The position numbers and the translations under genes are program-made. A stretch of DNA of 64,000 nt from Antedon mediterranea. Taxonomy: Eukaryota > Animalia > Echinodermata. Below, one piece after another: positions 5,401-54,608 of this stretch. Position 1 is the stretch's first letter, and the number at the start of each line of letters is the position of its first letter. The notes beneath the pieces were generated by a model. It saw only the letters and a program-made list of their open reading frames with translations, did not search any database and had not been told where the DNA came from. The stretch lies in contig NC_092671.1 of the NCBI RefSeq assembly GCF_964355755.1, forward strand, positions 11,470,001-11,534,000, written 5' to 3'.

Positions 5401-5536
5401 GGTGGGTTGTATCATGTCGCACTGGTCGCAGATCAAATATAATGATTAATTATTTCATATCACATGCTCAAGCAATTTGTTTCTAACATCCACAATACAA
5501 CCCACTCTATTTTGTTTAGGTAGGACTGGTGTATTT

Positions 5537-6078
5537 GACCCGCAACTCGCGTTTTTCGACCCGCAACTCGCGTTTTTCGACCCGCAACTCGCGTTTTTCG
5601 ACCCGCAACTCGCGTTTTTCGACCCGCAACTCGCGTTTTCCGACCCGCAACTCGCGTTTTCCGACCCGCAACTCGCGTTTTCCGACTCGCAACTCGCGTT
5701 TTCCGACTCGCAACTCGCGTTTTTCGACTCGCAACTCGCGCTTTCCGACTCGCAACTCGCACTTTCCGACTCGCAACTCGCACTTTCCGACTCGCAACTC
5801 GCACTTTCCGACTCGCAACTCGCACTTTCCGACTCGCAACTCGCACTTTCCGACTCGCAACTCGCACTTTCCGACTCGCAACTCGCACTTTCCGACTCGC
5901 AACTCGCACTTTCCGACTCGCAACTCGCACTTTCCGACTCGCAACTCGCACTTTCCGACTCGCAACTCGCACTTTCCGACTCGCAACTCGCACTTTCCGA
6001 CTCGCAACTCGCACTTTCCGACTCGCAACTCGCACTTTCCGACTCGCAACTCGCACTTTCCGACTCGCAACTCGCAAC
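5537..6078. repeat. 21-bp minisatellite, ~26 copies
   Basis: Unit GACCCGCAACTCGCGTTTTTC grading into GACTCGCAACTCGCACTTTCC; explains the five overlapping repetitive ORFs. Confidence 0.97.
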
Positions 6079-6855
6079 TTGCATTGAAGTAACACTCAAC
6101 ATAAACTTGTTGGAATTTCTTTGTTTTTCAGTATGTGACAGTACCAAAAGAAGGTTCCAATGGTACGGCACTATCAACACTCAACAAATCAAGTGCATCC
6201 ACTGAAATACAAGTTGAACCAACATCCTACTTTTAACAAATGCCAATAAATCTTAATTCCAGAAATTTAGTAACATGATTTATTTTTGTGTTTTTTTTCT
6301 GTCACACTGAAAAATATTTAAATTGTAGCTGCTGATTTTATAACAATTTCTAGTATTAAACTATACTGTATATTAAACCCCGTAAACACAAAAACTAAGT
6401 AAATTTTAATTTTTGGTCTTCTTGTAAAGAATTCTAAACTTTGTCATATTATATTAATAATGAATTTATATCATCTTTTTTACAGCTTATTTCTTTAAAA
6501 TTTAAGATTTTAATCACTTTGTTCTTTTTTATCTTTTGATCATTTTTGATTTCAAGAAATATGAAAGCAATAAATTTGTATTTGTAAAGATAGGCAATAT
6601 CATATTTAAATAAATTTATAAACAAATATATGTATGAAAATAAAGTAATAATAAATTATTTTGAATCTTATGAGAAGTAATTGCTTTTATTGTTGTTATT
6701 TGATGTTGTTGACTGCGGAGATGTTTGAGAATTAGAATCTCAAAAAAGATAACTAACAGACAATGGTATAGTTTTATTTAATTAACTTACGAAGATGAAG
6801 AAGAATTTTTACAAATGATAAACAACGTATTTTGATAAACGAGTGATGAATAAAG

Positions 6856-7471
6856 GGATCAACCTGAGTTTTCGGCATGTATTGAATATAGGACTATTCC
6901 ATTATTATTTATAGGGGTGTTAGTCAATATGTTGGGTTGGGTGTGCCAGGCTTGTTGAGGCTTCTATTGTTCGTGTCATTGTGCCAATTGTTTTGTATTT
7001 CACTGTGTTTGATAAAAACAAACAAAAAACTGCTGCTGTAGTTAGCCTATGTGTCTGTAAATTATATCGTATTTTACACTATATTTATATAGCCTGTAGG
7101 CCCTAACATGTTTTTCTACCGTCAACAGTAAAATCATATCATGTTTTATTTTACATTTCATGTAATATTATTATTATTTTTTTTTCTCAACAGCCGAATC
7201 AAGTTATATAGCCTCTTACAAATAACAAGAAAAAATACATTCAAACGTTATTCACAATAAGGAGAAAACATATACAACTTATTTAATTTATGTTTTAATT
7301 TATATAATCCAAAGGCAAATTAATGAAACAATGACAATGATGTGGGTATCAGTGTCTGGATCTCAATAGAGATACAAAAAAAAAGCGAAAAGCTAAATCA
7401 AAACGATAAAGTAAACAGCCAGAAAAACAATTTATATAAATACATCCATGTTTGTTTTTTTCTCAACAGTT
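6856..7471 (+). repeat. Left long terminal inverted repeat of the Merlin element
   Basis: Reverse complement of ~9314-9741 and ~12054-12481, with indels. Confidence 0.9.
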
Positions 7472-7759
7472 TATGACTTTAAAAAATTCAGTACACTTAA
7501 AGGCATAAGATTAAGCAAAACATACATTGTGTAACATATTTAATTTAAGGTATATATGTTTTATTTCATCGACCCAGTTTTAAGTGTTATTTAGTAGTGT
7601 CATGTTTGGTTCAACTCAATGAGTTAGCAATGTTCGTGAGGTTCTCTCTCCAGCTGATCCTGACACAAAAACTAAAATAGTCAGAAATAAAATTGCAGAA
7701 CTTTCTCTCATGCAACACACACTAACCCTTCCCCAGTACAGGATATATAGGGCCTAGTA

Positions 7760-8260
7760 CACTGTTAAAAAAATTCTTATAAAAAAACGGTAAATTACTG
7801 GCAATCTGGACGCCAGTAATTTACCGTAATGTAGAATTACAGGTACTGTTGAAAATAAATTACTGTAAAACTACAGTAAATTACTGTTGGTCATAAAGTC
7901 GGTTGCCTACCGTAATGTAAAATCACAGGTACTGTTGAAAATAAATTACTGTAAAACTACAAATTACTGTTAACTTGAAAGTCAGATGTCAACTATAACG
8001 TAAAATCACAGGTACCGTTTCTAATAAATTACTACAGTATATTACTGTTTATCTGAAAGTCTGTTTGTCAACAATAACGTAAAATCACAGGTACCATAAA
8101 ACTACAGTAAAATTACTGTCGATTTCAAAGGAAGTGGTCTACCATAATTTAGAATAATGTTTATAAATAACTGTAAAACTACATTAAAATTACTGTCGAT
8201 TTCAATGGGCAATGGTAATGTAAAATCACAGGTGCCGTTATTAATAAATTACTGTAAAAG
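7760..8260 (+). mobile_element. Truncated CACTA/CMC-like element end with ~60-bp subterminal repeats, nested in the Merlin
   Basis: Starts CACTGTTAAAAAAA; repeated GTAAAATCACAGGTAC..ATAAATTACTGTAAAACTAC units; no matching right end seen. Confidence 0.5.
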
Positions 8261-8756
8261 ATTTAGTGAATTCAAACCAAACAAAATATTACAAAAATAT
8301 AAATACCATACAGACAAAATAAATACATGCCAATCTTATTTCAATAACTGATAACAATAACAAACTCCATTATAACATTTCTTTTTCTACTTGTCTAAAC
8401 ATCTTGTTTCTGTCATGTTCTTATGTTCTCTACAATGTTCATTGTATCTGAACTTGATCTGGGATTCTCTGTAAACGTTTCTTTTTTTTAAATAAACAAT
8501 AACATTTTTATAAATCTATGCCTATATTACATAGATGTTTTCAATCTTCAAAGAACGTCTTCTATTAAAATCTGTTTATCACCTATATTTAGATTGATTT
8601 CAATATAAAATATTTAAGTAATTGATATTTACAATCGATCGAAAATCTTTAAAAAACCAATCTATTAAAATTAGACCTACAGTACCATCTATGCTTGATC
8701 ATTAAATAATTAATATGGACGTTACAATCATCAAAATATGCCTTATATTAAAATGA

Positions 8757-8986
8757 CCATCAAATAAATGGAAGGTTTATTCCAGAGTACAGGACCTGGA
8801 TGTGGTAGATGGAACAGTAAACCACAGTAAGAATGTTGTTGATCCAATAACAGGATTCCACACTCAAAACATAGAATCCTACTGGAATCGTGAAAAATTA
8901 AAGTTAAAAAGAATGGGTGTAAACGGGAATGGTTACCGGAATACCTTGACGAATTTATGTGGCGAGAAAGATATGGCATAATATAA
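8757..8986 (+). pseudogene. Merlin/ISXO2-like transposase C-terminal remnant
   Basis: Translates SNKWKVY..TVNHSKNVVDPITGFHTQNIESYW..K..G, frameshift, then LPEYLDEFMWRERYG: the diagnostic Merlin VNHS/VDP.TG.HTQ.IE..W/YLDEFMWR motifs. Confidence 0.9.
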
Positions 8987-9112
8987 ATTAAACAGATTAA
9001 GTAAGTTAAAATAGATGTTCCTTGTGCCTTATTAAATAATGTTAAAGTTCTTGTGCCTTATATTTGAATAAAGTTTGAAGAATGTATCTTTCGATCTGCT
9101 TTTGTTTTTTTG

Positions 9113-9741
9113 CTTCTGTAATTGTTTTATTATTTTTGATTTGATATCTGCTTTTTACATTTATTTTTGTTGGTGTTTTCTTTTGAGCACGTTTTTGTTA
9201 CTGAAAAACAACTTTTAGTTGAGTTAAGTATCCGTGATTAAATAAAGCTTATTATTATTATTATTATTATTATTCTATCGATTTTTTTCTTGTTGTTTGT
9301 AGAGGCTATTTGCAACTGTTGAGAAAAAAACAAACATGGATGTATTTATATAAATTAAAACATAAATTGGATATTTTATATAAATTAAAACATAAATTAA
9401 ATAAGATTAAAATATATATGAATCTTTTTCTTGATCTTTTCTTGTTATTTGTAGAGGCTACTTGATTTAACTGTTGAGTAAAAAAACATGTTAGGGCCTA
9501 TAGGCTACTGTATATAGTGTAAAATACGATATAATTTACAGACACATAATAAAAGCTATAGGCTAACTACAGCAGCAGTTTTTTGTTTGTTTTTATCAAA
9601 CACAGTGAAATACAAAACAATTGGCACAATGACACGAACAATAGAAGCCTCACAACCCAACCCAACATATTGACTAACACCCCTATAAATAATAATGGAA
9701 TAGTCCTATATTCAATACATGCCGAAAACTCAGGTTGATCC
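9113..9741 (+). repeat. Merlin right end, copy 1 (629 bp)
   Basis: Direct repeat of 11853-12481 (offset 2740), apparently identical by eye. Confidence 0.95.
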
Positions 9742-10326
9742 CAATTCATTGCATAGTATTTTGAAAAGTGCATATTTTGGTCGTTTTTAAAAAATGACCA
9801 AATTTTGACCTCTTTATTTGACATAAATGGTTACTATACGTCTAAAAGATAATAATTAATAACCCAATATACGCGCATATATAGAAATTTTATTGCATAA
9901 TAACAGTATTTTTGAAAATGTGCAGAACACAAACATTTGATTCTGCGCATGCAAATTATATGATATAGTAAACAGTTATATCGACATTTAGCCATTTTTT
10001 CTAAATTTTTCAGAATAAATGGCCTAAAATGTATTGATTTAAAATGCGCAGACCATTAGCCTATGTCAAAAAATAAAATTTGGCCATTTTTCGAAAATGT
10101 CCTGTACTATATATAGTACGATAACATTGCTGAAAGCTCTAGTTAGAAAATGTGATCGGCAAGGAACTATAACGAACATAATGCTTAATAACATCTTTGA
10201 TAAAAGGAGACTTTAACGAAATTTGTGACAAAATATTACCCCTAATTATGGTTTATAAAAGGATCTAAATTTATTTGAAATAGTAAAAATACACAATATA
10301 TGTTTAGGTGAACAAATATCATGAAT

Positions 10327-11298
10327 TTACAAAGCAGTTGTATTGGCATAACTGTTAGGCCTACTAATACTTGCAACAACACTAGGCCTATAAAATTTGG
10401 AGAAACATGGTTCCAATAAACGTTTATATCCGCTGCGGAATTCCGGAATGCGCCACCAATAAACGAACGGATTCAACGCCGAATTCAACGGCAGTAACAC
10501 ATGACTAATATCGTAAACCACAGCTTGAAATGTATTTTTTAAACTAGTACCAGTAGTGGTATGAATAACGTACATCATGAATAACTGGTTTGGTAATAAG
10601 CAACAGCAAAGCAGGCCGAATAAAATAGCAAATGTAACGAACAACGATTTTAATCGTGCATGGCGAGCATTCACAGACGCACATCCTCTTTCAAATGTAT
10701 CACTTTGGCGTTTTACGAATCCAAAGATAATCGCATACATCAGTCCAACAACGCAGGTCATTGAAAGGTATATAAAATACACAGGTTGCATATATTTTCT
10801 ATCTTCTACTGCGAAAATCAGCAACATACTCATCCCACTGATAAATATAAGTGAAAAGATCCAAAGACAAATGCATGCGATTGTTAACTTGCATTTAGTA
10901 ACGACATACCGATAACGGAAAGGTGCAACAACCACGGCTAAGAATCGTTCAAAACTAACGGCAAACACCCAAAGTAAAGAAAACATAGCGTTGGTTGTGG
11001 CATCAAGACTTGTCAGGGAATCCGAACCATTGTGTGTAGTTGACATCAGTGTCGCAAATACACCGACGAGGAAGTCTGCAACTGCAAGATTTGCAATCAG
11101 AACATTCTGACGTTTTCTGAGTTGTCGGATGCAACATAACATAAAAAATGTAATCATATTTGTAATGATTGCAACAATGCCAATTATAATTGTTAATATC
11201 CTACAAACCTCAGTCACTGGGCTCATATTGAAAATAAATAAGTATTTGACATCAGAAAAAAATATTGGTTCATCGGTTGCATTCGAAGAGGAAGACAT
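10327..11298 (-). CDS. Intronless rhodopsin-family (class A) GPCR, 323 aa
   Basis: Seven hydrophobic segments; TM2 IANLAVADFL, TM3 SFERFLAV (E/DRY), TM6 CCLLP, TM7 NSALNPFVY (NPxxY), N-terminal NAT glycosylation site. Confidence 0.93.
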   Translation of the reverse strand: MSSSSNATDEPIFFSDVKYLFIFNMSPVTEVCRILTIIIGIVAIITNMITFFMLCCIRQLRKRQNVLIANLAVADFLVGVFATLMSTTHNGSDSLTSLDATTNAMFSLLWVFAVSFERFLAVVVAPFRYRYVVTKCKLTIACICLWIFSLIFISGMSMLLIFAVEDRKYMQPVYFIYLSMTCVVGLMYAIIFGFVKRQSDTFERGCASVNARHARLKSLFVTFAILFGLLCCCLLPNQLFMMYVIHTTTGTSLKNTFQAVVYDISHVLLPLNSALNPFVYWWRIPEFRSGYKRLLEPCFSKFYRPSVVASISRPNSYANTTAL

Positions 11299-11852
11299 GG
11301 CCTAATATAGCCACATAAACTTTAGCGAGTCAAATTCACTTATCGATCCTTAGAAACTTATCTCCACCACTTAGATGCGTTCATTCATACTAACCAATGT
11401 AAACGGACGCTTACGGATGTTTCAGGTAAAAAACGTCAATTTCATGAGCAAAGCTGCATGCAGCGAATCCACTTTGTTAAGGAAGAGAATTGCATCAAAT
11501 CCACTTTGTTACTGAAGTATTCCATTGTTTTGTCTATATATACAGTATAACTGTAACATAAAACCTAGCTACCCTCATAAATGTGCATTTTCATAATATC
11601 AAATTAACTGTATTTGTTTAACTTAAGGTCGGAACACAAAGCTATAACATTTTATGGCTACGTTCCATGATTCAACAGGAAAATCTAGGACAAATTTAAA
11701 TTTGTCCTAGATTTTAAAATGTTTTAGATTCCAGACATTTGTGACTTTTTCATTGGGTGTGATAACAATGTATGATTTCAACATAATAAATTAGTAATTT
11801 TAACAGCCGGAATGTATGATAGATAGTTGAAAAACAATTAGGAACATTGATT

Positions 11853-12481
11853 CTTCTGTAATTGTTTTATTATTTTTGATTTGATATCTGCTTTTTACAT
11901 TTATTTTTGTTGGTGTTTTCTTTTGAGCACGTTTTTGTTACTGAAAAACAACTTTTAGTTGAGTTAAGTATCCGTGATTAAATAAAGCTTATTATTATTA
12001 TTATTATTATTATTCTATCGATTTTTTTCTTGTTGTTTGTAGAGGCTATTTGCAACTGTTGAGAAAAAAACAAACATGGATGTATTTATATAAATTAAAA
12101 CATAAATTGGATATTTTATATAAATTAAAACATAAATTAAATAAGATTAAAATATATATGAATCTTTTTCTTGATCTTTTCTTGTTATTTGTAGAGGCTA
12201 CTTGATTTAACTGTTGAGTAAAAAAACATGTTAGGGCCTATAGGCTACTGTATATAGTGTAAAATACGATATAATTTACAGACACATAATAAAAGCTATA
12301 GGCTAACTACAGCAGCAGTTTTTTGTTTGTTTTTATCAAACACAGTGAAATACAAAACAATTGGCACAATGACACGAACAATAGAAGCCTCACAACCCAA
12401 CCCAACATATTGACTAACACCCCTATAAATAATAATGGAATAGTCCTATATTCAATACATGCCGAAAACTCAGGTTGATCC
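11853..12481 (+). repeat. Merlin right end, copy 2 (629 bp), followed by the TSD
   Basis: Copy of 9113-9741; followed by GAATAAAG. Confidence 0.95.
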
Positions 12482-12987
12482 GAATAAAGTATTTTGGCAA
12501 ACGACTAATAAACAACATATATTTTCCAAAGCGAATATTACAAATTATAAGTACAATTTTTCAAATCATCCCCTGATGAAATTAATTGATGTATATTTGG
12601 CGCCCTCTGGATAAGTCACCTGCTTAATATATTAATGTTGCCGAGCCTTTTTTTGCAAAACAAGAAAAATGAGTTCGTAAATTAACAATAAAATAGTTTT
12701 TTTTTGTCGAGGTATAGTGCATTTATTTTATCATATAAGGTAGAATGAATGTAAAACTACCTATTTAAAGTGTTTTTTAGCATATATGTATTTCCTATTT
12801 CGTGTTGTAAGCCTAGCTAGCCAGGCACCGGGCCTAGGCTAGGCCTAGCCGTACACTCTAGGTCTGGGCCAGGGGCCTTGGCTAGCTAGGGCGGCTAGGC
12901 CAGGGTGGTAGGCTAGGTATACCTAGGCCTAGTACTGTACGTAGATCCCTACTCAATACTGTACTTTGCACCTCAATCTCGAGTTTA

Positions 12988-13884
12988 GGCGCTAGTTCCG
13001 TTTCGCACCTGTCGTTTATTTCGACTCAAAATTGGTTAAGTAACTTTATCGTGAGTACCACACCTTTAGAATTAGGCCTCAAAAATACTTTTACGAAGGA
13101 GATCACACAAAAAGTAAAAAGTAAATCCTTTAAATTGATGAATTTACAGACGTGTTTCTCGCACATCAGTTCGTGAATTTCGCATACTCCATGTTCAATG
13201 GGGATTGTTGTTTCTATGGAGCGCCAAAAGAGCAATCATAATAGAGGGCTAAAAACTCAGTAAATTTCGTATATTTAATGCATTTATTGGTGAAAATTAC
13301 GTTCAATTTTATCATATTTTGTCAATGTCAATGCAACAAAAATATTACTGTTGATACTGTACATGGTTTTTGCAGGAGCTTTTAGGAATGAAAATCGACA
13401 AATTCATCATCATATTACATGTACTGTAGGGGTATACCTTAATCTAAATAATGTGCGTCTTAGTCTTACTCTTAGGCCTAGGGTTGGTTGCTATTTGAAA
13501 ACAGCAAATTATTAGCAGTAAAATGTTACAGCATTTTTATTGACAAAATATATTAAAATTAAACGTGTATTTCAATAGTAAATGCATTAAAAGAAGACGC
13601 ATTCCACTGAGGTTTTAACCATCTATTGTTGTTGCTCTTTTGGCGCTCCATAGAAACGAAAATATTGAACTTCGAGTATGCTAAATTCGCGGCGAACGGC
13701 ATGCGAGAAACATGTCTGTAAAATCATCAATTTAAGGATTTATTTGTTACTTTTTGTGTGATTCTTCTTCATAAAAGTACTTATGAGGCCCAATTTTAAG
13801 GTGTGGTATACACAATAAGTTGCTTAACAATTTGGAGTCAAAAGGAAGTCGAAATAAAAACAGGTGCGAAACGGAACTAGCGCC
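12988..13884. mobile_element. Non-autonomous long-TIR element (Merlin- or MULE-like MITE) just upstream of the WDR7 start exon
   Basis: ~250-bp imperfect TIRs GGCGCTAGTTCCGTTTCGCACCTG / CAGGTGCGAAACGGAACTAGCGCC; 8-bp TSD CGAGTTTA (12980-12987, 13885-13892). Confidence 0.88.
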
Positions 13885-14024
13885 CGAGTTTATACCAACA
13901 ACGAACATCCACCCCTTTTTTTGCATATTCATAAATTAATATAATAGGCCTACCCAGTCATAACTATTCATACTGTATTTTTTTGCTACATATTCATAAC
14001 AATTCCACCTTTCCCTCTAGGTGA

Positions 14025-33150
<19,126 letters not shown>

Positions 33151-35563
33151 GTTGGTAAGTAGTTTTATATTAGTAAGAGAATACATACATACAGATTTTT
33201 TGTATTATTTCCAAACATGATTATAGCTGACAATATAAAAATCAGCATAGTTTTGATCCACTGCCAGCCTGCAAAAACTACTGATTTACATGCCATACTA
33301 ATTTTTTTCGTAACCCCTGATTTATATGTCTGTTTCTAACTGCTTGAAAAATGCTTTTTTACATTTTAAAAATACAACAACAATCAACAACTGCATTTTT
33401 AATTCTTTTTCTTTATAAACTTACAAACAGTTAATGCCAATTTACATGGAAACCGGGTAGTTTGTCTCACATAGGACATATCCTTAGCGGAAACCGCCCT
33501 TCCGCTCCACGTTTTGTGTAAATGGTCATAAGGAATAACATAGATTCTATTCTAATTTTTATTTCCGTTACCGCTCGTTTTTTAGCCTTTACAGTTGATG
33601 ATAAGTAAATCCTGCCTGTGAGGAGTTACTCTTGGAGGATATGTTGAAATTAAAAATGGTTAGTTACTATATTTTGAAAGGATTCTTAACGACCTTTTTA
33701 CCACCCCCAGTTTTAATTAGCAATCTTGTCCCTGTTAGCTAAATGTCTGATTCGTTTTAAGCATCAGGTAACTACTTGCAGACATCTATGTCACTTCACT
33801 TCCTCACATCAATACTCTAGAGACAATCTGACAGCAAGCTAAAAGCCTAGCTTAATTGTTTTCATTTGTTTTGTGTGTTTTGGTGTTTTGGCTAGACTCT
33901 GCTTCCTTGCACATATTATAATGAGCGATCTGATGACCTCCCCCCCCCCCCCCATGCCCCTTGCAGATCTCATCCAGGTAAACCACCTTTACACTTCAAG
34001 GAACCATCAATATTAATGCTCCTTCTTCTTTCATACCGACACCTAGCCCCTTCCCTTCTTGTAGTATCAACCTTTTAATCATAGAGGAATTAAAACAATC
34101 ATCTCCCTTAATATTATGCTCTGTCAGTGGAATGAACAACCTAGAATACACAGTGCCATACCAGATACTATTAAATAAGATAAATGTGGGAGTCTAGCCA
34201 GCTCTGCATGTGTTCAGTGATGACAAATGAGTCACAAATATTACTTATTTCATTATTTGTTTCATATCATACTCAACAAGTTAAACAGTACAGCAATGTC
34301 AAATAGTTGCTGTCCTTTTTGTGTATGACTGTTTCAAAGTCTTGTTTAATATATTTTGCACATAGCATTTAGGCCTATGTTGGTTTTTTCATGGTAGAAA
34401 CCATCAAACAATTTTTTCAACATCCACACTGTCCTATCTATTAATTGATAATTGACAAGATCATCTAAGTTTAATTTCTAAAATTAGACTGTCTGACGTA
34501 CGATTGATATTATCAATTTTCTTAAACTTATTTTGGTATGCATTACATCATTTCTTATATATATGCCAAGACATTCTCAGCTGGGCTATATCAATACGTA
34601 GACTATTTAATTAATTGGCTAGACAGTAATTGAATTAATTTTCAGTTTAAATTTGTAATTTATTTATTTTGAGATAATATACACACTGGAATGAAAAGTA
34701 CTATATAATGGTTTATTTATTTCTTTAGTTTTTAGACAATATTTATAATCAGACAAATGCCATTATTAGTTGTTAGTTTCTGATATAACAAATATTCTTT
34801 TCATCCACATTGTGTATTAAATTTTAATTCTTTTTTATACCCTTCCAAAATTAGACTAAATTAGCCTTTATAGAAAATGTTTGATATTTTATTAGTGATT
34901 TTCTATATTGACTGTTTTCTGCATGTACGTATATTGTTATTATCTCTGCAGTGTATATAAGAGGAATTTCTAATGTATTTTTATATTGGACCAAATAAAG
35001 AATATATATAAATCCAAAGGCAAATTACTGAAAAAAATGCTAAAAAGCTAAATCAAAACGATAAAGTAAACAGCCAGAAAAATTAGCAGAGCTTTATATA
35101 TATATATACTGTATATATAATATAGAAATTGTTTACTAAAAGAACAATGTCTAAAGTAGAAGAATACACAATGTTTTTGAATTTGTGTAGGAAGTTAAAT
35201 AATGACGTCAAAAACACCCAATTGAAAATATGGGTATTAATAGTTCCCTCAGGACTTTAATTTGTATGAACAACAGGATAATTATACAATTTGGTCTCTG
35301 GCTGTATCTTACCTCCTGGGTCTTCGATATTTTACAAATTGCTATGTGATTTTTTTATTTGAATGCCTACAAAAATCACATGAAAAGTCTGCAATAGGAC
35401 TTGAAATGAATAGCACCTTTGAGACTAACACTGGAATGTGAAGTACTTGACATTTAAAGTCACTCATATTTTGAATTACATTATGAATTATTTTGCACAT
35501 TCGAACTCCAGACTTTCAAAGTACTTTTTTGAAGAACGAGACAATGTTTTTCAGACTGAAAAG

Positions 35564-36600: not shown

Positions 36601-38535
36601 TGATTTGATTTGATTTGATTTATTTCGGCATCAGTACATAAAATATCACAGACATACAATTAAAATTGGCAAATATAAAAAGACCAATATAAAACAAGGA
36701 TGCCAAGGATAACTCATAAAAGTCCTCTACGGACTTGTTTCCAATGAGGTCCTTTGAGAGAACAGCAAAAAAGACAAACAAAGCAACAATAAAAATTACA
36801 AAAAACAGCAAAAAGGACAATCGAAAAAAGAAGAAGCGCTAATTAAATAGTTTCTAGAGCTAGTGAACGTTCCTGTAGATACTTTTTAACTTTACTTTTA
36901 AAACAACAAACAGTTTGTGATTCCTTAATGTTAATTGGTAAATTATTCCATTCTTTAATAGCATTGTAAAAAAAGGTCACATGTGCCATTGGCTTGATAG
37001 TTGGGATTCTAAAATTAAAATTGCATCCCCTAGTATTGTAATTATGACTGTCTGAAATTCTAATAAAACGATTGCATAAATAAGGTGGACAACAATGATT
37101 AAATATTTTAAAAACATGACAGACTCTAAGAAATTCGACACGGTCTTGGACTTTTAACATACCAACGTCGTTTAGCTGAGATTGACCAACATGAGATCGG
37201 GGACCTAACTTTTTTATAAAACGAACCATTTTGTTTTGAGTCGTTTGTAATTTTGATTTTAAATTTTTATTTACCGTAGAAGACCATGAGCAAACCGAAT
37301 AATCGAACATCGGTTGGATTAAAGCAAAACTAAGAATTTTGCGACAATGTGAATTAAGAAATGATGATTGTCGGTACAGAAATTTCAGTCTGCCGTTTGC
37401 TTTGTTTATAACAGAGCGGGCAATGACGTCACCTGATACATTTTGGTCAATCTCAATACCTAGATATTTGATAGATTTTGATCCATTTATAGTCGTTCCA
37501 AAGCAATCAATATAGAATTCGTTTACTTTGCTTAATCTACGTTTAGAACCAAACAGGATGCATTCGGTCTTACCCATATGAAGCGAAAGTTGATTGTCGA
37601 TCAGCCAATTATTGCATGATACGAGATTGTTTTGGAGTTTAGATTGGATTGCGATTGGATCTTTATGGGAGTAAAAAAATTGCACAATCGTCAGCGTACA
37701 AAACAACTTTACAATCACTTTCGATACTAGATGGTAGGTCATTCACGTAAATAAGAAACAAGAGAGGACCCAAAAGGCTACCCTGGGGGACTCCACATCC
37801 AATCTCAATAGAGTTCGATTTGGTACCTTTAATATCGACAATCTGATTTCGCCCAGACAGGTACGCTTGAAACCAACCGATAGACCGGCATCCTAGATAC
37901 TTAAGTTTTTTACACAAAATATCATGATTGACCGAGTCAAAGGCCTTTTGGACATCGAGTAAAACCATACCCGTAAATAAACCATTTGACATTTGAACTC
38001 TAAGGTGATCTCTAAGATGGATAAGACATGTGTCGGTAGAAAATGATCTACGAAAACCGGATTGATGATCGTAGATAAGTTGATTCCTTTCAAGGTAATC
38101 GGAAACTTGTATATATACCACCTTCTCCAGAATTTTTGAAACTGAGGAGAGAATGCTTATAGGTCTGTAATTGTTAGCCTCAGTTCTGGAATTCTTTTTA
38201 TGAAGGGGCGTGACTTTTGCGAGTTTAAAATCCGAGGGAATACGTTCGTATTTAATGGAGAGGTTAATTATATGTGTTATTGGTATTTTAATATTAGGAG
38301 CTCCGTCTCTAAGAAATTTTGCAGGAATCTGATCAAGGCCTACACTTTTAGATGGGTTGAGATTTCTCAATTCCTCTTCGATAAGGCTCTCATCAATTTC
38401 TTCGAGAGAAAAACCAGAAACATGTTTGATTTTGCTATTATAGTAATTTTTAAAGGCATTCGAACCCACACTAAAAAGGTTACTGGGAGAAGGCAATTTC
38501 TTCATTAAATCGGAAGCAATATTTGCGAAGTAATG
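36601..38535 (-). mobile_element. 5'-truncated CR1/L2-group LINE: RT domain plus C-terminus, one frameshift
   Basis: NYRPISIL, QSGFR, LLDVQKAFDSVNH, GVPQGSLLGPLLF, YADD, KYLG; frameshift in the A/T run near 37675; 3' UTR ending in (AAATC)n tail at 36601-36620. Confidence 0.92.
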
Positions 38536-41500
38536 CTTATCTTTTGATTCTTACGTCTGTTGGCTTCAGACATATAGCACTGTACAGTAGTAATTGGGCA
38601 ATTTCTTTTTATAGTCTCAAATTCATTGCCTGTTTGAATTATATTCATATTGTAGATAAAGCTTACTGAATGAAGATATATACCCATAATGCAAATATAC
38701 AATATTCAACTTTTGTCATATCAATATCGCTTAAGTTGTTAACTACAAATTCACTTTTTTTACTCCATCAACTCGCCATGATATTGCAGAAACTAAAGAT
38801 TTCTTTATTGCCATATAAATCATGAACAAAGCTTATTGATGACACACTTACTATCTTTTAACTTCCGTCACAAAATAAATACCGTTGTCACGTACGTTTG
38901 TCGTCGTACAGTGGTACAAAATACTAATGTATTTATTCAAAGACTATCCTTTGAGAGTTTCTTTGTCACATGTGGGCGACTCTTTAAAGTTACAATTTTC
39001 AGGCCTGTCAATATGCTCTCTTTCTAAAATCCAAATCGACTTTTGTGACTGAGTTCAGCAAGAGTAGGCTACAGTATAGTGTGAAAAGTTTTTTTTATCA
39101 CTATTGTATTAACACTGTTTAAAATAAATTAAATCAAAATTGATGATACTAAGGCAAATATGTGATTATCAAAATACAGATATGGTAGTTAATTTACCAC
39201 AATTTATATAAATGAATCACTAAAATGTTATCGTTAAATGATTTATATTAATCAATCAAGTTATTCATAAATCAAATTGAAAAGATAAATTGTTATTTTT
39301 TAAATAATATTCAGGAAAAAATGTAAAAGGTTAAAGCAAAATAAGGAGAGAAAGAATAATTACAAATTTTTTAATAATAACTTATTAGCCTATGTCTTAT
39401 CTTTTTTTAACAGAAATCTTAATTTTATTATTTAAATTATGCTTATTCATTTATTTGCAGAACATTTTCAATTTTCCCATACATACAGTTTTCCTCAACT
39501 AGTTTCTTTACATCCAAACATGTGCATGCATGTGGAGCTGTGATATGTCCAACCAAGTCAGCATGACAAATAAAAATGTAACATATCCTATCACCAGGAT
39601 CTGCAGTACATGTTTATGCCTGTTAGTTCAGCCTATTAACTTTTTATGAAATATGATACACTTTGGACAATACCAGCTGTATTTCAAATTACTGATGATC
39701 TTAATATCTCATCCTTCTTTATAAAACTTAATATTAAGTTAACCATATTGGTGCCTGCTGGAAATTAAGCCTGCAGAATTGCAACACAGCTTGTTAGATA
39801 TAAAATTTAATTTAAAATATGAGAGATAACCTGTATGATTTAACCCATGGGGTAATATAATTGATTAACCTCCGCATGATATAAAGGTACGGTAACCTTT
39901 TTCTTGGCACACTGAAAAAGTCTTTGAATATGAAGTCATTGTATTTCAGCATCCCTATACTGAACTTAATAGACAACACAGCATAACAATAGTTTATACC
40001 AATTCAGAAACAAATCATCTAAGCATTGGCATTATGTGGTAGGGTGGCCATTTCCACACAGCCTTATATCCTCCCTAGTATCTTTCAACCAGGTGTTCAA
40101 TTACAGCTGAGTGGACAGGGAGTCATTCTTCTTGGGAGTTGAACCTGTGCCTTTCTGTATGATAGTCAAGTCCACTCAAGACCACTCAGCCACCAACATT
40201 CAAATAAGAATAATATAATACTTGAATGACAGATTTTCTTTTGAGTAAAAATATGCAATGGAATACACCAAATGTTTTATTTATTATTTTGACATCCTCC
40301 TATTAATCACTTAGCTATAAAGTACTAGAAAAAGTACTATGTAGTATATCAGATCATGAGAAACTTTTCACATGTTGTCTGGTAATAATCATATTTGTCA
40401 TGATGTTATTTTCTTATAGAAATGCTATGAATGATTGACATGTGTCAGATGTTGATTAAGTTGACATATATTGGGAATTACTGTCTCAATGCAGCAACGC
40501 TTTCCTTCTGCAGTAACACTACTTACGCTGCGACACTAGTGTCCCACTTAAGTAACACTACATTAACAGGTATGTAGTGACACTAGTGGCGCACTGCAGT
40601 AAATTAACAGCAACACTGTTTTGTTTCGGAGCTATTCAGAACTGTATTTCGTCAATTTAGATTCATTGTTCATCCAACTCCTAAATCAAATGTATGCTAC
40701 TATCTCAATGCACTGTATTTACTATACTCATAGCAGTGACACTACCATCGCCTGTCTACTACCTAAACACTTTACAGTAAGACACAATCTGATATTGTTG
40801 ATTAACTAGTTTGATATTTCGTATTGTCTTCTAAAAACATGTAAAAATCAGTATGTTCAGATACACAAAGTTTATTTATAAACAACATAGAATACCAAAC
40901 TTGATGTTCTCGTCACTTTGTGAGCCTCATACTGAAAGTCTTAGTGGGCCAAAAATATGCTTATTTATATAGGAGAATAATGATGATAATAGAACTATCT
41001 GATTCCAAAGTAAAATATAAAGTTGCGATATTAAAAGAAATACAGAACGTTTCTATGCACTATTTAATGGATTTATTGAATATGGTTATATTCTTTCTTA
41101 TTTCCTTTCTTTAATTGTTGAATTTAGTCCAATACTATGAAAGTTATACATAATACAGATACACATATTTAAGGAATGGTGTTAATGTTAATACATGCAA
41201 AGGCAAGTTACTGGAGAAGAAAAAATGATATATTGGATTCCTAATTGATTGTAATTGGTTCATATATGTGTTTCATGGAACATTTTTTTCTTAATGTACT
41301 AAATCGTTTAATGAACTCAAGTTCAAAATTATGAACTCACCATTCCAACTACAAGCTTTCAACTTTGTTTCTTTTTATACATATAATCTGTGTTTTCACT
41401 TAAATCTATAAGATTATTGGCTCCAATGTTGGTTTCAGAAAAAAATACCAAAAATATCATAGATATACTATAACTACTAGAGTGTATACTACAAGTCAAG

Positions 41501-47291: not shown

Positions 47292-48473
47292 TTATTCACA
47301 TGATCTGTCATTTTTGAATTTTTGATTATGTGCCTACTAGACTTCATATTACGTAATATTACGTGTTCAGTACATTTAGTACGATTCTGAGAATTGTAAT
47401 ATTATGATTCAATCACGCCTAAACATATTTTTACAATTTAGGCCTATAAAAAGTAATCATTTTATGAGTGTGTAGGCCCTATATGTATTTCTGCTTAATT
47501 GACCTTGTACCATTGATTTCTCTTCTATATTATTATGTAAACTACTCAAAACAATTAGTTTCCTTGTTTATATATAGTTTAGGTTCTTTACAAACCTTCT
47601 AAAAATAAAACTAATTTATAAACAACATTCTAGACTCTCGAGCACCATTTTCGTCTGCGTATAGAAAGAAAAGTTAAGTTTCGTCAGAAGACGAATAATT
47701 GTTAATGTAACATAAAATAATATGTTAAAACATAAGACTTTCTTGGTTTAAGTATAGGAGTAGATGCCCTTTTCAGTAGTCCTGATGAGTTCCGGTGAGT
47801 TCTCATTTGAGAGCTTCCAAGAAGTTGGGAAAGCAATGGTGAAATTGTTTCCTCTACGTCATCTTTATTTATCTTCTTTTCTTTATTTTTATAATATTTC
47901 ATAAACTTTTCTTTTGTGTGTTTAAAGTTCTTAGACATATTTGTATTGTTTTTCAATTTAACAAAATATCTAACTATGGTGGTTAAGCATTCCGAATTGT
48001 TTTATCTTTCCACTTTGTTTTGGGGTTTTTTTTTTTAAATTTACCACCATGCCATTATAGTTATCTTTTAATATCGGTTTCAAAATGACACATATTTTCA
48101 GGAAATTGAAACAATTTTATTATAATAAAATTAATGTATAGTTTTTATTTCTATGTTGTAGTTTCAGATGTCGATTGCTCAAAAGCTGTAGCTATTGAGA
48201 AATACAAGTATGCCCATACAGTATGTATTTAGTTTTGAATAACAACATGATTGTATTTCAGCATTTCATGTAATTAAACCAGTCTTTATTGTAATGTTTT
48301 ATTAGAACTCTGTGATTTATTGCAAAAGACCAGGATATCATATTTTATCAAAGAGCCATTCACAAGTATAATATTGTCAGTATGGTGAGTGCGACACTAT
48401 TTAGATAGACCTTCTCTCATTAATTGACTGACTGAAAAATAACGCGAACAGACAAAAGATTTGATTGAAAAAA

Positions 48474-50493
48474 ATGGAATGGTTTATGTTTATGCTGACC
48501 TTTGGTCTGTCCTTTGAGAATGTTGTAAGCCGAACAAACCAAATAATCGATAATGTCGATTTTTATGCCAATCGATCGTATACTTTTACTGCAGACGGTA
48601 AATGTGAAACTTTAGTGACTTGGGATTACCGTGAATCGCCACAAGAAATGCCTACTGTCCTCGCCAATAACTTCACAGTGTCCGCCTTTAAACGTTCCAG
48701 AGTCCTAGCAGACGTTAATAACACCACCAATCCTACACTGAATATCAGATATGCTAAATACAGTGATCAAGGTATTTACAGATGCTGGTGTTGGCGAAGA
48801 GTCTATAAACCAATCAGTCTGAAAGAGGTTTGGCTGGGCCAAGTTAACACTTCTACGCGAAAAATAAACTGGAGAGAACCATATGCTGAAATCTTAACAG
48901 ATAGTCCAGATAAGCTACCTATACATTCAAACGTTGTTTACAGATGTGGAGAGACACACAGTGTAAATGCAGTTATTGGCTCTGTTCGGTGGAAAGTTAA
49001 CGTAACAAATGACAGATTTAAAGTAAATGAAGACGCCATGGAGATACGTGGTATTCAACCAACTGACAATGGTACCGAGATTTGTTGTGAATTTGATGCA
49101 ATATCGTTTAAAAAGAGCAGTACAGTACCTTATGCAATGACCCCGAAAGCCTATAAGATCCTCGTTGTTACGTCAGCAGAGCACCCATCAACCAACACGG
49201 TAATCTTATTAACAAGCTCCACCGGCACAACGCTGATAATGAACCGGAGTACCAAAAAGGTAGAGACAATAAGATAATTAGTAAAGAAATTGATATGATG
49301 GTTCATTTAGTGTAAACCAATATTAGTATTTATACTGGTTTACACTCAATGAACCATTTCAATATAGATAATATTAATTTAGATGGTTATAATTAATTTA
49401 TGTAATTAATGAAATGATCATTATGATCTTTTTATTTATTTTTTCTAACTTGAGTGATATGATACACTTTTCTTTGCAGACTAATCACTGGTACAATAGA
49501 TTACCAAAATGGGTGATGATATACAGTACTGTTTCTATTGTTTTCTGTGTGTGCATTGGTATCTGCATTGCCCTGTGTATAAGAAAAAAACAGAAAAAGA
49601 AACAATGGATTAATAACACAAATTGCAAGGAAAGCTGGGGAAGATTTACATCTAAGCCCCCCAGAAATAGATCTAGGCATAGGTTGTCTTTACGGCGTCT
49701 ACGGCAATATTTTAGTGTTCTTGGAACTGGCCACGTATATGAACACGGAATACCAATCCAATTACCTGACACCCCGTGTGTTCATAGAAACAACTCACAT
49801 ATGCTTACACAACAGCAAACCAGTCCTCTTGATGAACTATACCTTAACACTATGGACAGGAGAAAGGAACGGCAGGAGAAGCAGCCAAAAGATACGCATC
49901 TGCAACAGTTGTCGACGAATGAACGACTGGAAAGGCAGCCAAAAGATACGCATCTGCAACAGTTGTCGACGAAGGAGCGGGAGAAGGAACCAAATGTGAC
50001 AAGGAATCTGAAACAGACTGCCACAAAGGAACATGAGGGTGAAATAAAAAACTACACAATAGACCACATGGACATGCCACCGCAACAATACACAAGAGAG
50101 AAGCTGGAAGGGAAGCAACAGAATGATACCGACACCATAGACACACATCAACATCACACTAAAGACTACCAACGAAAGGCATACAATCACACAAGAGAAA
50201 TATGTAGTAGGCAGACTGGAAAATTGCCAACGACAGCTGCTCACAAAATAGGCCTACAACATGGCCGTACCGCAACAGGACATGAAGACGCAATTACCCT
50301 AATGACAAACATGAGAAACACAAATGAAAGGCTGCAAAGACCAACGAGAGAGATGCGGACATCAGAAGAACACTTAAGTAGGCCTAAAATACAAGAGAGA
50401 CGTCGACCACGCGCAACGAGAGTGACCAAAGAACCGTGGGTAATTTACAGAAAACCGGAAAGTAACATTTACATGAACGTAAATCAAAAGTAA
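48474..50493 (+). CDS. Type I membrane protein: signal peptide, two Ig-like domains, S/T stalk, TM, long Tyr-motif cytoplasmic tail
   Basis: Exons 48474-49259 and 49480-50493 join in phase 0; Ig signatures C..W..DQGIYRC and YRC..W..DNGTEICC; TM WVMIYSTVSIVFCVCIGICIALCI then RKKQKKK. Confidence 0.72.
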
Positions 50494-50676: not shown

Positions 50677-52445
50677 GAATCATATTTCGTCACCAGAATA
50701 TGGTATCTAAGTAAAATTGGTGTCAAAATGTGCAGAAGTAAAAAAGGAAGAATACTTAAAATAGAAGTCATGTCTTTGGATCAAATCTTGACCACTAAAA
50801 ATGAGGTCAAAGGTCAAAAAGTCAAATTTTCTACATAAAATGGCATATAATTGATATTTCAGCAACATATAATGGTATATTGATGTTAAAATATGTAAAA
50901 AAAAAAGAATAAAACTTGGAACAAAAACAAACAACTTAAAAAATGAGGTCAAAGGTCAAAACTATTTATTCTATCATGAACATGCTGCTATTACTATTTT
51001 TTTTTTGTTGGAAAAAAAAACCCCAAAACATTAACTTTGACTTATTGAGGCGTACACGGTGTCAAAACGCACAGAATAAATGGGTCAAACTAACTTGACA
51101 ATGACCCTAAACCAAGTCTTGACCACCAAATACAAGGTCAAGATAATGCTGATAATAACTTGCAGTAACTATCACCAAAACAAAATAAATTAATAATTAT
51201 AGTGCTTCATCTTCATCGCTGTCAATTAGTTCTTCTGCATCTGTGTTATCCTTTCCATTCTCGCAATGTCCACTGCACACACCACATGCAGATACACATG
51301 ACATGCTAGCTTTCATGCAGCTGCATCTCATGGTTTGGCATTGCCTTTCGCCTTCCTTGCAATTGCAGGAGATTCCTTTGAGAAGCTTGTCTGGCGCAAT
51401 ACCACAAGAGAGCATCTTAGGTTTAAGTTTTCAGTTGGAGTCTAATTCCCATCCTCTTCCTTTGGGTTCAAGAACCGAGGTGTTCAGATGCCTCCATATC
51501 CCAACTTGAAGATGAACACGCAGGGAATGTTGAGCGGTTGCATATTCCGTTGGTGGTAGACGGTCAGGATCGATCTTTCCTTTGGCTGCTTGCTTCTTGA
51601 ACTTAAGATAGCGAGGCTTTTCAAGAGGAGTATCCCCACAGCCATATGTGATCTGCATTGCCTTTGATCCGGCTGTTCGAATTTGTGAGACAGGTGAAGT
51701 GGTACATGTAGATGTTGTGATGACACTGGCAGGAAATTTGGATTTGTAAAGAGCACATTTGGTATGTCCATGAATGCATGAAACAGTGTCATTTCTAGAC
51801 CAGCCATACTTGATGAGGAACTCCTCGCGGTCACAGATGTCTATGGTAGAGATGTCGTAAAGACCAAAATCTGCTTGAAGATACAAGTTAGTACAGTCGA
51901 TAGGTCTATGATAGCAGAGCAAAATCAAAATATCAGTGTCCTGGGCGACAACAACAACTGGTGAATTAACACCTACGACCAAATCCATTGCAGATCTAAC
52001 AATCAGTGTGTCACCATCATCCTTTGCTTGGCGTACAGTGATATGCTGTCTTGCCATCTCTGTATATATCATCGTGATTAAGGCTCCTTTGTTCTTCTCA
52101 TTTGCCAGGAATACCTCTCTATCACATGACACAGTCAGGTCCAGTGTGACACTCAAGTCCGGAGAAACCTTTTCCAGCCATCCGGCGTATATGCTCATGG
52201 TCTTTCGTTGATGATTCTTCCCCGTAGTCATCAAACACGACGGTAGCACTCTTGAATTTGTTGTCAACATACCTGACATAAGAATCAACTATAGCCTTGA
52301 CAGTTGCTCCGCTGGCCCATTTTACCTGATGAAGAATCCATCCTCCATCAACCACGTGCACCTTGCTGTTCATGTCTACATCGAGTTTTGTAGCTTTCTT
52401 CTTTAGCATCTGGCCAAATTCATGTTTTTTTGGTTTCCTCATCAT
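50677..52445 (-). mobile_element. AcademX-like transposon 3' fragment (XPG/PIN-like nuclease + Cys cluster), frameshifted
   Basis: VVDGGWILH, VVFD.Y, DDGDTLIV, DTDILILL, LPPT, GW, C.C..C...CSC....C...C..C...CEN across ORFs 52122-52445, 51431-52288, 51197-51415. Confidence 0.72.
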
Positions 52446-53173
52446 GCAGTCTATTGTGAAATTACATTGCTGCTTGGTCCATTGGTGGTCTCCTGAGAAA
52501 CAGGTTTTGGCTGAGGGTTATCTGTTTTAAGGCCATTTTCATATAAAGATATTGTGGAACCACGTCAGGTCAAGTTCAATATTGAATGTCGAAACGTGGC
52601 AGGCTGAAGGCGCTTGACCTTTGACAAGATCGCCTAATTTTTTTGTATATTAACTTTACAATACCTAGTGTTGTATATTCTGGTACAGCAGCTCCATAAT
52701 CTCTTTGCTTTTCTTCATTATATCTATATTTTTTATTTATACTAACAAATATCTTTTTATTAATATTATAATAATAATAATATATCAAAAATTGATTAAA
52801 TAATATTTATCGCATAATATACAACCTACGTATACGATAATTTAATTAATTGATATAAAAAATAATTATAATGATATTATATTCGATATTATACCCAACT
52901 ACTATCTCCAATTCTTTATCATTAGAATAAAAGAAAAAATCACACATCTACACATAATCAAACATTGTATACTCTATCTCTAACATTTTTTTCAATCTTC
53001 TATTGACTAAAGCCAAAGTATTTAGTCGTTATCTCGGGACCGTTCTATAGTTACCACCAGGCAGGCTTACTTCATCAAAGCTTCTATGAATGGATGTATT
53101 GGTTGGGAGCAGAAAAATTAATAGACCATACCCAGTACCGTTTTGATTACGATCAATCGGGAAATTACCTCAC

Positions 53174-54608
53174 GAAATTCAAGAGTGCTACCGTCGTGTT
53201 TGATGGCTACGGGGAAGAATCATCAATGAAAGACCATGAGCATATACGCCGGATGGCTGGAAAGAAGGTTTCTCCGGACTTGAGTGTCACACTGGACCTG
53301 ACTGTGTCATGTGATAGAGAGGTATTCCTGGCAAATGAGAAGAACAAAGGAGCCTTGATCACGATGATATCTACAGAGATGGCAAGACAGCATATCACTG
53401 TACGTCAAGCAAAGGATGATGGTGACACACTGATCGTTAGATCTGCAATGGATTTGGTCGTAGTGTTAATTCCCCAGTTATTGTTGTCGGCCAGGACACT
53501 GATATTTTGATTTTGCTCTGCTATCATAGACCTATCGACTGTACTAACTTGTATCTTCAAGAAGACTTTGATGGCCTGCGTGTTCATCTTCTAGTTGGAA
53601 TATGGAGGCATCTGAACATCTCGGTTCTTGAACCCAAAATAAAAGGATGGGAATTAGACTCCAACAGAAAACTTAAACCTAAGATGCTCTCTTGTGGTAT
53701 TGCGCCAGACAACCTTCTCAAAGGAATCTGCTGCAATTGCAAGAAAAGCGAAAGGCAATGCCAAACCATGAGATGCAGCTGCATGATAGCTGGCATGTCG
53801 TGTGTATCTGCATGTGGTGTGTGCATTGGACATTGCGAGAATGGAAAGGATAACACAGATTCAGAAGAACTAATTGACAGCGATGAAGAGGAAGCACTAT
53901 AATTATTAATTTATTTTGTTTTGGTGATAGTTACTGTAAGTTATTATCAGCATTATCTTGACCTTGTATTTGGTGGTCAAGATTTGGTTTAGGGTCATTG
54001 TCAAATTTAGTTTGACTCATTTATTCTGTGCGTTTTGACACCATGTACGCCTCAATAAGTCAAAGGTAATGTTTTGGGGATTTTTGTTAATTTAAAAAAA
54101 AACAATCACTCATAATAGCATGTTCATGATAGAATAAATACTTTTGACCCTTGACCTCATTTTTTAAGTTGTTTGTTTTTGTTCCAAGTTTTTTTCCTTT
54201 TTTTTCTACATATTTTAACATCAATATACCATTATATGTTACTGAATATCAATTATATGCCGTTTTATGTAGAAAATTTGACTTTTTGACCTTTGACCTC
54301 ATTTTTAGTGGTCAAGATTTGATCCAAAGACATGACTTCTATTTTAAGTGTTATTCCTTTTTTAATTCTGTACATTTTGACACCAATTTTACTTAGATAC
54401 CATATTCTGGTGACGAAATATGATTCATACAAGAATTATAGCTATTTGGCAACGGTCAATGAACTTTGACCTCCGATAAAAAATTTTCCCCAGCCCCTAT
54501 GCTCCCTTCTTTTTTTTTGGTAGTTGTCCATACCCATACCTACCAAAATCAGTTGAAATTTGCTTCTTTTAAATTTTTTCACAGATAAACCTTTAGTTAG
54601 GGATACTA
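53174..54608 (+). mobile_element. Second AcademX-like fragment, inverted copy with ~340-bp internal deletion and probable CTA terminus
   Basis: 53174-54426 is the reverse complement of 50677-52262; continues to ..AGTTAGGGATACTA (54608). Confidence 0.7.

Follow-up and report, generated by a model that had tools for sequence, protein, structure and literature searches.

The window analysed here is a 64,000-nt stretch of the Antedon mediterranea genome (assembly GCF_964355755.1, contig NC_092671.1, positions 11,470,001 to 11,534,000 of the forward strand), and it carries, upstream of the WDR7 gene, a 5,626-bp composite of a Merlin DNA transposon and a segment encoding a G-protein-coupled receptor (GPCR). 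The order within the composite is left end, transposase remnant, inner right end (R1), a 2,111-bp cargo (9742..11852) and outer right end (R2), and the whole lies between two copies of the 8-mer GAATAAAG (6848..6855 and 12482..12489), which directly flank the outer Merlin termini as an 8-bp target-site duplication. The chance of finding this 8-mer at a fixed place is p = 3.6e-5 under the composition of the window; it occurs four times on the + strand of the 64 kb, one of them within the element at 9066. The termini begin with GG, and the element starts as GGATCAACC at 6856 with its left arm (6856..7140, + strand), a long terminal inverted repeat (TIR) with a 5' GG end. In its alignment with the right arm 265 of 302 columns match, five are substitutions, and the first 244 columns differ by gaps only. 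R1 (9113..9741, + strand) is complete to the TIR tip and terminates at 9741, where the next letters are CAATTCAT. R2 (11853..12481, + strand) is its exact duplicate (629/629 bp), and subtracting the cargo and one right end from the composite leaves 2,886 bp. This is the structure that had been proposed in a preliminary description of the window, all of whose coordinates check out, including the target duplication and the letters that follow R1.

The cargo holds a single-exon reading frame of the rhodopsin type (class A) on the − strand (10327..11298), which encodes 323 aa, is unbroken from ATG to TAA and has 554 bp of upstream and 585 bp of downstream DNA around it. The uninterrupted 323-aa GPCR with some 550 bp of its upstream DNA that had been described is therefore present; the further wording, a 'complete, intact GPCR gene', is supported for the reading frame only. 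The translated frame matches Pfam 7tm_1 (E = 1.6e-16, profile positions 2-260 of 260), and a simple hydropathy scan gives six peaks above 1.5, the seventh helix falling lower. It aligns end to end with two 323-aa proteins of Anneissia japonica (59% and 56%), and the alignment with relatives retains LAVAD, ERF, CxLP, NPFVY and both ends. Because the next relatives after the Anneissia pair share only 23-30% identity, the product is predicted to be an orphan class A receptor, and the names of the source proteins are given no functional weight. An AG five bases before the ATG might serve as a splice acceptor; its pyrimidine share is 0.5, compared with 0.5-0.85 at 17 chosen acceptors in the window. 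No RNA run is among those listed as containing the cargo, which speaks neither for nor against expression. The GPCR protein record occurs on one contig only (40.9 Mb), the one which also carries WDR7 and an ST8SIA3-like gene; this fits a donor on the same chromosome, short of demonstrating it.

Contigs from four of ten sequencing runs (X1, X4, X5 and X6, with X2, X3 and X7-X10 outside the comparison) were compared with the window. This gave 89 joints, 1,494 loose ends, 300 letter differences and 13,839 pieces, of which 15, 24, 40 and 32, respectively, were listed; statements about contigs here refer to these rows. X1 and X4 come from a single sample, which may be the source of the assembly, X5 is another individual and X6 is a relative. 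Contig depth is not a copy number, and contigs lose rare variants, for which reason the absence of window-private letters from the contigs was excluded as evidence.

A second genomic copy of the cargo, the donor, exists. Contigs of single-locus depth in X1 (record 7, 1,965 letters) and X4 (record 13, 981 letters) fit the window from 11686 to 11860 and 11861, respectively, with two letters differing, and then extend 1,790 and 805 letters past the cargo into DNA that is neither Merlin nor part of the stretch compared. Upstream of the GPCR, the donor is thus not flanked by Merlin, its contigs running into other DNA, and no second cargo copy was found within the 64-kb window. Since the cargo ends at 11852 and the donor fit reaches 11860 or 11861, 8-9 letters appear to be common to the donor continuation and the Merlin interior at this point (11853..11860, + strand), a microhomology deduced from where the contig fit ends, the letters themselves not being displayed. 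An 8-letter match at a fixed junction has a probability of 2e-5 by chance. A palindrome of 36 bp without mismatch (11680..11715), located upstream of the GPCR frame, explains the contig breaks at 11686 and 11709. At the other edge, the left part of the cargo (9742..10108, right limit approximate) is a piece of an unrelated high-copy repeat, a point that the preliminary description had overlooked; these first ~370 bp have very high depth in the four runs, and a unique contig begins at 10082 in X4.

Relative to single-locus depth, the cargo stands at 1.75-2.21 in X4, 2.1-3.1 in X1 and 0.9-1.45 in the relative X6. This suggests room for the donor and the present copy, not for a family of composites, and there was no sign of further composite copies with other target duplications at a depth of about two units (one sample and a rough measure). 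The preliminary description was right that the cargo is not native and has a donor elsewhere, as the diverging contigs and a cargo depth about twice that of the flanks indicate. Its other expectations fared less well: a depth of about two units leaves no room for the additional copies of the left end, right end, GPCR and right end that were to be looked for; the expansion of a GPCR family by this route comes down, by depth, to one extra copy; and a Merlin end before CAATTCAT at the donor, which it had predicted, was found in none of the contig rows. Nor did these rows contain an empty or a simple (2,886-bp) allele at the site. An X4 break skips exactly base 12671, like a one-letter difference between two chromosomes, and given this break unit depth would be diploid and the insertion would be on both chromosomes. 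In X5, cover is missing immediately to the right of the insertion, and a ratio of GPCR to left-flank depth of 1.55-1.83 is too weak a basis for calling it present or absent.

The cargo differs from the donor by about 2 in 1,800 letters, as far as the contigs go, and from the allele of another individual by 0.7%, and because of this the event looks young. One further contig, record 5 of X1, has GATCC before the cargo and then eight letters which do not fit the TIR. The break of this record lies on a GATC site, so that it may show the edge of the donor itself, with microhomology of 5 letters, or an artefact of that site.

The assignment of the element to Merlin follows from its ends and from its transposase. 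The TIR falls in the range of 24-462 bp and has the terminal GG by which the superfamily is defined (PMC8101967), a target duplication of the 8-/9-bp class is present (one site), and a DDE_Tnp_IS1595-related transposase is recognised through relatives and a profile. The remnant (8757..8977, + strand) preserves, over two frames, only the C-terminal third of a transposase of the Merlin/IS1595 type, and taken alone it matches Pfam DDE_Tnp_IS1595 under the cut-off (E = 0.0096). It has 881 relatives at E<=0.001, and the domain is found at or above the Pfam cut-off in all 14 that were scanned (14 of 150 listed). A full-length profile built from 15 relatives matches the remnant at 8757-8933 (E = 3.7e-22) and, in the second frame, at 8894-8974 (E = 1.1e-5), and the second catalytic position is read as SN instead of SD (Asp as Asn). 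No intact DDE transposase is present in the element, and because the frameshifted remnant covers positions 213-285 of 303 only, in two frames, the element is predicted to be a non-autonomous Merlin derivative. The Merlin identity that had been claimed stands, as the GG ends, 8-bp duplication, transposase relatives and internal repeats fit the description in PMC8101967; the transposase remnant is also where it was said to be, although the frameshift and the loss of all but the last third had been overlooked.

Inside the element lie tandem repeats of 83-86 bp (7761..8253, + strand) and a 403-bp segment (8335..8737) that is kept in one subfamily and skipped in the other, the joint 8334-8738 being seen in X4, X1 and X5. 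Family depth comes to about 12 units in X4, whose sample is source-like, and to about 40 in X6, a relative, which suggests copies in about these numbers; the family looks young and multi-copy, with two subfamilies that have or lack the 403-bp segment. A 52-bp piece of the element (7376-7427) recurs at 35031; its extreme depth, common to all runs, marks it as part of a different and very abundant repeat.

The two right ends are likely to derive from one element, one having been copied from the other, because they are identical at 629 of 629 positions despite a divergence of about 1% in the family. The divergence of the window element from family-majority contigs is 0.3-3.7% for single records and 1.1% for three X1 records taken together, and the probability that two independent family copies would be identical over 629 bp is about 0.0009. 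R2 also carries the window letter at eight places of R1 where contigs list another letter.

Taken together, the structure is read here as the result of template-switch repair, in which a resident Merlin was broken at its right end and mended by synthesis that copied the cargo in after the insertion; a rough probability of 0.55 is given to this reading. An ordinary 2,886-bp Merlin would have inserted upstream of WDR7 and created the 8-bp target duplication. Next, its right tip would have been broken, in the simplest case through a one-ended cut by transposase from another copy. Repair synthesis would have taken 629 bp of right-end sequence from the sister chromatid, switched to the donor locus by way of the 8-9 shared letters and copied 2.1 kb there. 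Rejoining of the synthesis product to the intact tip would give left end, right end, cargo and right end, and the outcome would be one extra copy of the receptor frame. Of the two routes that had been put forward in the preliminary description, copying-in during repair is thus favoured over the insertion of a ready-made 5.6-kb unit, because the right ends are identical and the depth accounts for the donor and this copy only.

Several points weigh against repair by template switching. The cargo abuts the TIR tip exactly, which a parent Merlin on the donor side explains without an extra step, and no simple 2,886-bp allele was found at the site among the contig rows listed. By the 31-letter rule, none of these rows bridges any junction: the reach is 28 letters into the TIR across the outer left junction, 4-6 across the outer right and 5 across the inner left, while the inner right junction has no contig record listed and is represented only in X1, by a left-over depth of about 34. 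The eight letters of X1 record 5 are possibly artefactual, their break lying on GATC like the X1 break at 10262, and the two runs that carry the donor evidence, X1 and X4, are a single sample. The divergence from the family majority may reflect subfamily rather than age, since contigs lose rare variants. Finally, the gap-filling described in the part of PMC8277862 drawn on here has breakpoints within elements and small deletions, and a re-copied complete end is not a pattern it describes.

The leading alternative, although a tentative one, is that the 5.6 kb arrived in one event from a parent Merlin beside the donor GPCR, by composite insertion or end bypass, an idea close to the one chiefly put forward in the preliminary description. 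Transposition during replication would join the left end and the right end of the sister to the target. Re-replication would then run through the right end of the parent into 2.1 kb of flank and abort, and microhomology would link its product to 629 bp taken from the other right end. This accounts jointly for the exact junction at the tip, for the identity of the right ends, for the outer duplication of the target and for the join through 8-9 letters; composite insertions of maize Ac are built alike and have microhomology of 4 bp and 9 bp at their internal joint (PMC4270019), and end bypass is cited for P elements, in cases which the pipeline of Tan et al. would miss (PMC8277862). With a parent of this kind, however, X1 record 5 would be expected to enter the TIR in the way that record 1 enters it on the left, but it does not, and the window letter at 8915 has one depth unit in X4 (313), though its 66 in X1 correspond to 2-3 units. 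The strength of this evidence is limited by the fact that a parent could be lost or polymorphic.

Far less probable is that the composite was born at a third site, since lost as a source, and transposed here as a 5.6-kb unit through its left and outer right ends. Both of these ends are intact, the Merlin family looks young and multi-copy, and such a route, FoSTeST, has been described and was proposed for Ssk-FB4 (PMC8277862); yet a second composite does not fit into the depth of the sample, and the outer right end would face competition from the inner one, which is intact. We give an equally low weight to an assembly artefact, in which a simple Merlin and a Merlin-plus-GPCR segment from elsewhere were mis-joined through identical 629-bp ends. 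The perfect identity of these ends would suit a mis-join, as would the lack of formally bridging contigs among the rows listed and of any record from cargo to R2. A mis-join is opposed by a cargo depth about twice that of the flanks in two runs, by the two letters that separate the donor contig from the window, by the X1 left-over depth, which points to a second contig at the right edge of the cargo, and by the position of the locus on a 40.9-Mb contig. A native GPCR flanked by two independent Merlin insertions, one of them later truncated, would make a capture step unnecessary, but it needs a chance match of the 8-mer together with identical ends from two insertions and disregards the second cargo copy with a different flank, and it is hardly credible.

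The insertion is intergenic, the WDR7 ATG being 1,548 bp away, and the window exons match the A. mediterranea WDR7 and ST8SIA3-like proteins at 99-100%. The coding span of WDR7 (14037..33147, + strand) has a long 17/50/51-bp tandem array in its last intron (30363-31900). Between the insertion and the start of WDR7, 13000-13900 is taken up by an element of very high copy number whose arms are inverted (13204-13334 against 13531-13663), and a 21-bp tandem array with very high depth in the four runs lies about 750 bp to the left of the insertion (5432-6100). In Anneissia the GPCR pair, the closest relatives in the protein search (58%), is on a scaffold of 1,071,974 bp and the ST8Sia orthologue on one of 1,319,994 bp; ST8Sia stood in for WDR7, which was missing among the 120 listed of 553 matches, and draft scaffolds near 1 Mb make this a weak comparison. 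WDR7 and ST8Sia are on contigs of equal size in Acanthaster, Strongylocentrotus and Diadema, the three compared echinoderms listed in both searches. Because the Anneissia GPCR pair and ST8Sia are on different scaffolds while WDR7 and ST8Sia are paired elsewhere, there is a weak indication that the GPCR gene is not native beside WDR7.

Other features of the window include a 694-codon open frame without a Pfam match (408-2492, + strand), the atlas neighbours of which are SWIM/MULE-type proteins (0.90-0.93) and which is likely to be an intact-looking Mutator-like transposase. Reverse-transcriptase frames of a retrotransposon of the long interspersed nuclear element type were recognised by eye at 36843-38550 (− strand). 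Two long frames at 48465-50493 (+ strand) may belong to an Ig-domain receptor: the first matches the immunoglobulin V-set, although below the cut-off (E = 3.7e-5), and the second has a transmembrane-like stretch. The 3.75 kb at 50677-54426 consist of halves that are long inverted copies, with arms of <=433 bp that are 80-98% complementary, and contain transposon-like protein fragments; no target duplication was found at the outer ends, and the atlas matches are unnamed eukaryotic clusters. The stretch may be Academ-like.

If correctly read, the locus is a very young and base-precise snapshot of a gene duplication tied to the end of a DNA transposon, in a superfamily for which no reported cargo was found in the open-licence literature. 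Single-exon genes, such as many GPCRs, are small enough to be transferred whole in this way, and one copy falls short of establishing that family expansion takes this route. Public data include the donor, the family and the relatives, and the choice between repair capture and composite insertion is one that is also open for the end-linked cases in PMC8277862. It is conceivable, though improbable, that the locus represents a newborn eukaryotic composite transposon, in which Merlin, a eukaryotic relative of bacterial IS1016, encloses the entire receptor gene with one left and two right ends, mobile as 2.9 or 5.6 kb and spreading an expressed extra GPCR in feather-star populations. Neither published Merlin cargo nor Merlin capture of a GPCR was found in the open-licence literature, and titles and listings there held nothing relevant on crinoid GPCR expansion or A. 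mediterranea transposons. The earlier remark that whole-gene cargo is not known to have been described for Merlin agrees with this, while near-whole-gene capture by animal TIR elements has precedents in Ssk-FB4 and ARF6-MER20 (PMC8277862).

The Merlin/IS1016 group of IS1595 has GG termini, TIRs of 24-462 bp and 8-bp target duplications (PMC8101967), and the present element resembles it in its GG ends, TIR range, 8-bp duplication, DDE_Tnp_IS1595-type transposase and internal tandem repeats, and departs from a typical Merlin as a non-autonomous remnant that carries host cargo. In the main text of PMC8101967, 'cargo', 'composite' and 'additional gene' are not used. The maize Ac/Ds composites (Zhang 2014, PMC4270019) are alike in combining transposon ends and adjoining DNA within one 8-bp target duplication and in their short microhomology; they involve a hAT element, were caught experimentally and require transposon ends at the donor. 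In Ssk-FB4 of Drosophila melanogaster, as here, nearly a whole coding gene and its upstream DNA are found in a very young TIR element. That element is multi-copy with distinct target duplications, in contrast to the single copy here, and it is transcribed, translated and under selection (PMC8277862).

The closest likeness is with the single-copy Pack-TIRs of the animal survey by Tan (2021), which reports 370 cases with a median cargo of 224 bp and microhomology in 67.6%, most single-copy cases arising by gap filling with microhomology (PMC8277862). Such elements hold 100-5,000 bp of non-transposon DNA within one TIR element, have a parental copy elsewhere and microhomology, and exist as one copy. 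Here the enclosed DNA measures 2,111 bp, of which ~370 bp are themselves repeat, and a parental copy at the level of at least 90% identity is present in the contigs of the sequencing runs; by analogy, the Merlin-GPCR structure would work like a single-copy Pack-TIR. Merlin is not among the 370 cases in the part of the survey used here, and in its 12 supplementary files the name was found as a column head only. This says little, because the 100 genomes surveyed hold just 111 Merlin elements by our own sum. The cargo at WDR7 is ten times the survey median and includes a whole reading frame, and where the usual gap-filling Pack-TIR has a small deletion, 629 bp are duplicated here and a complete inner end is kept. 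It is this duplicated inner end that appears to set the Merlin case apart from the usual product of gap filling.

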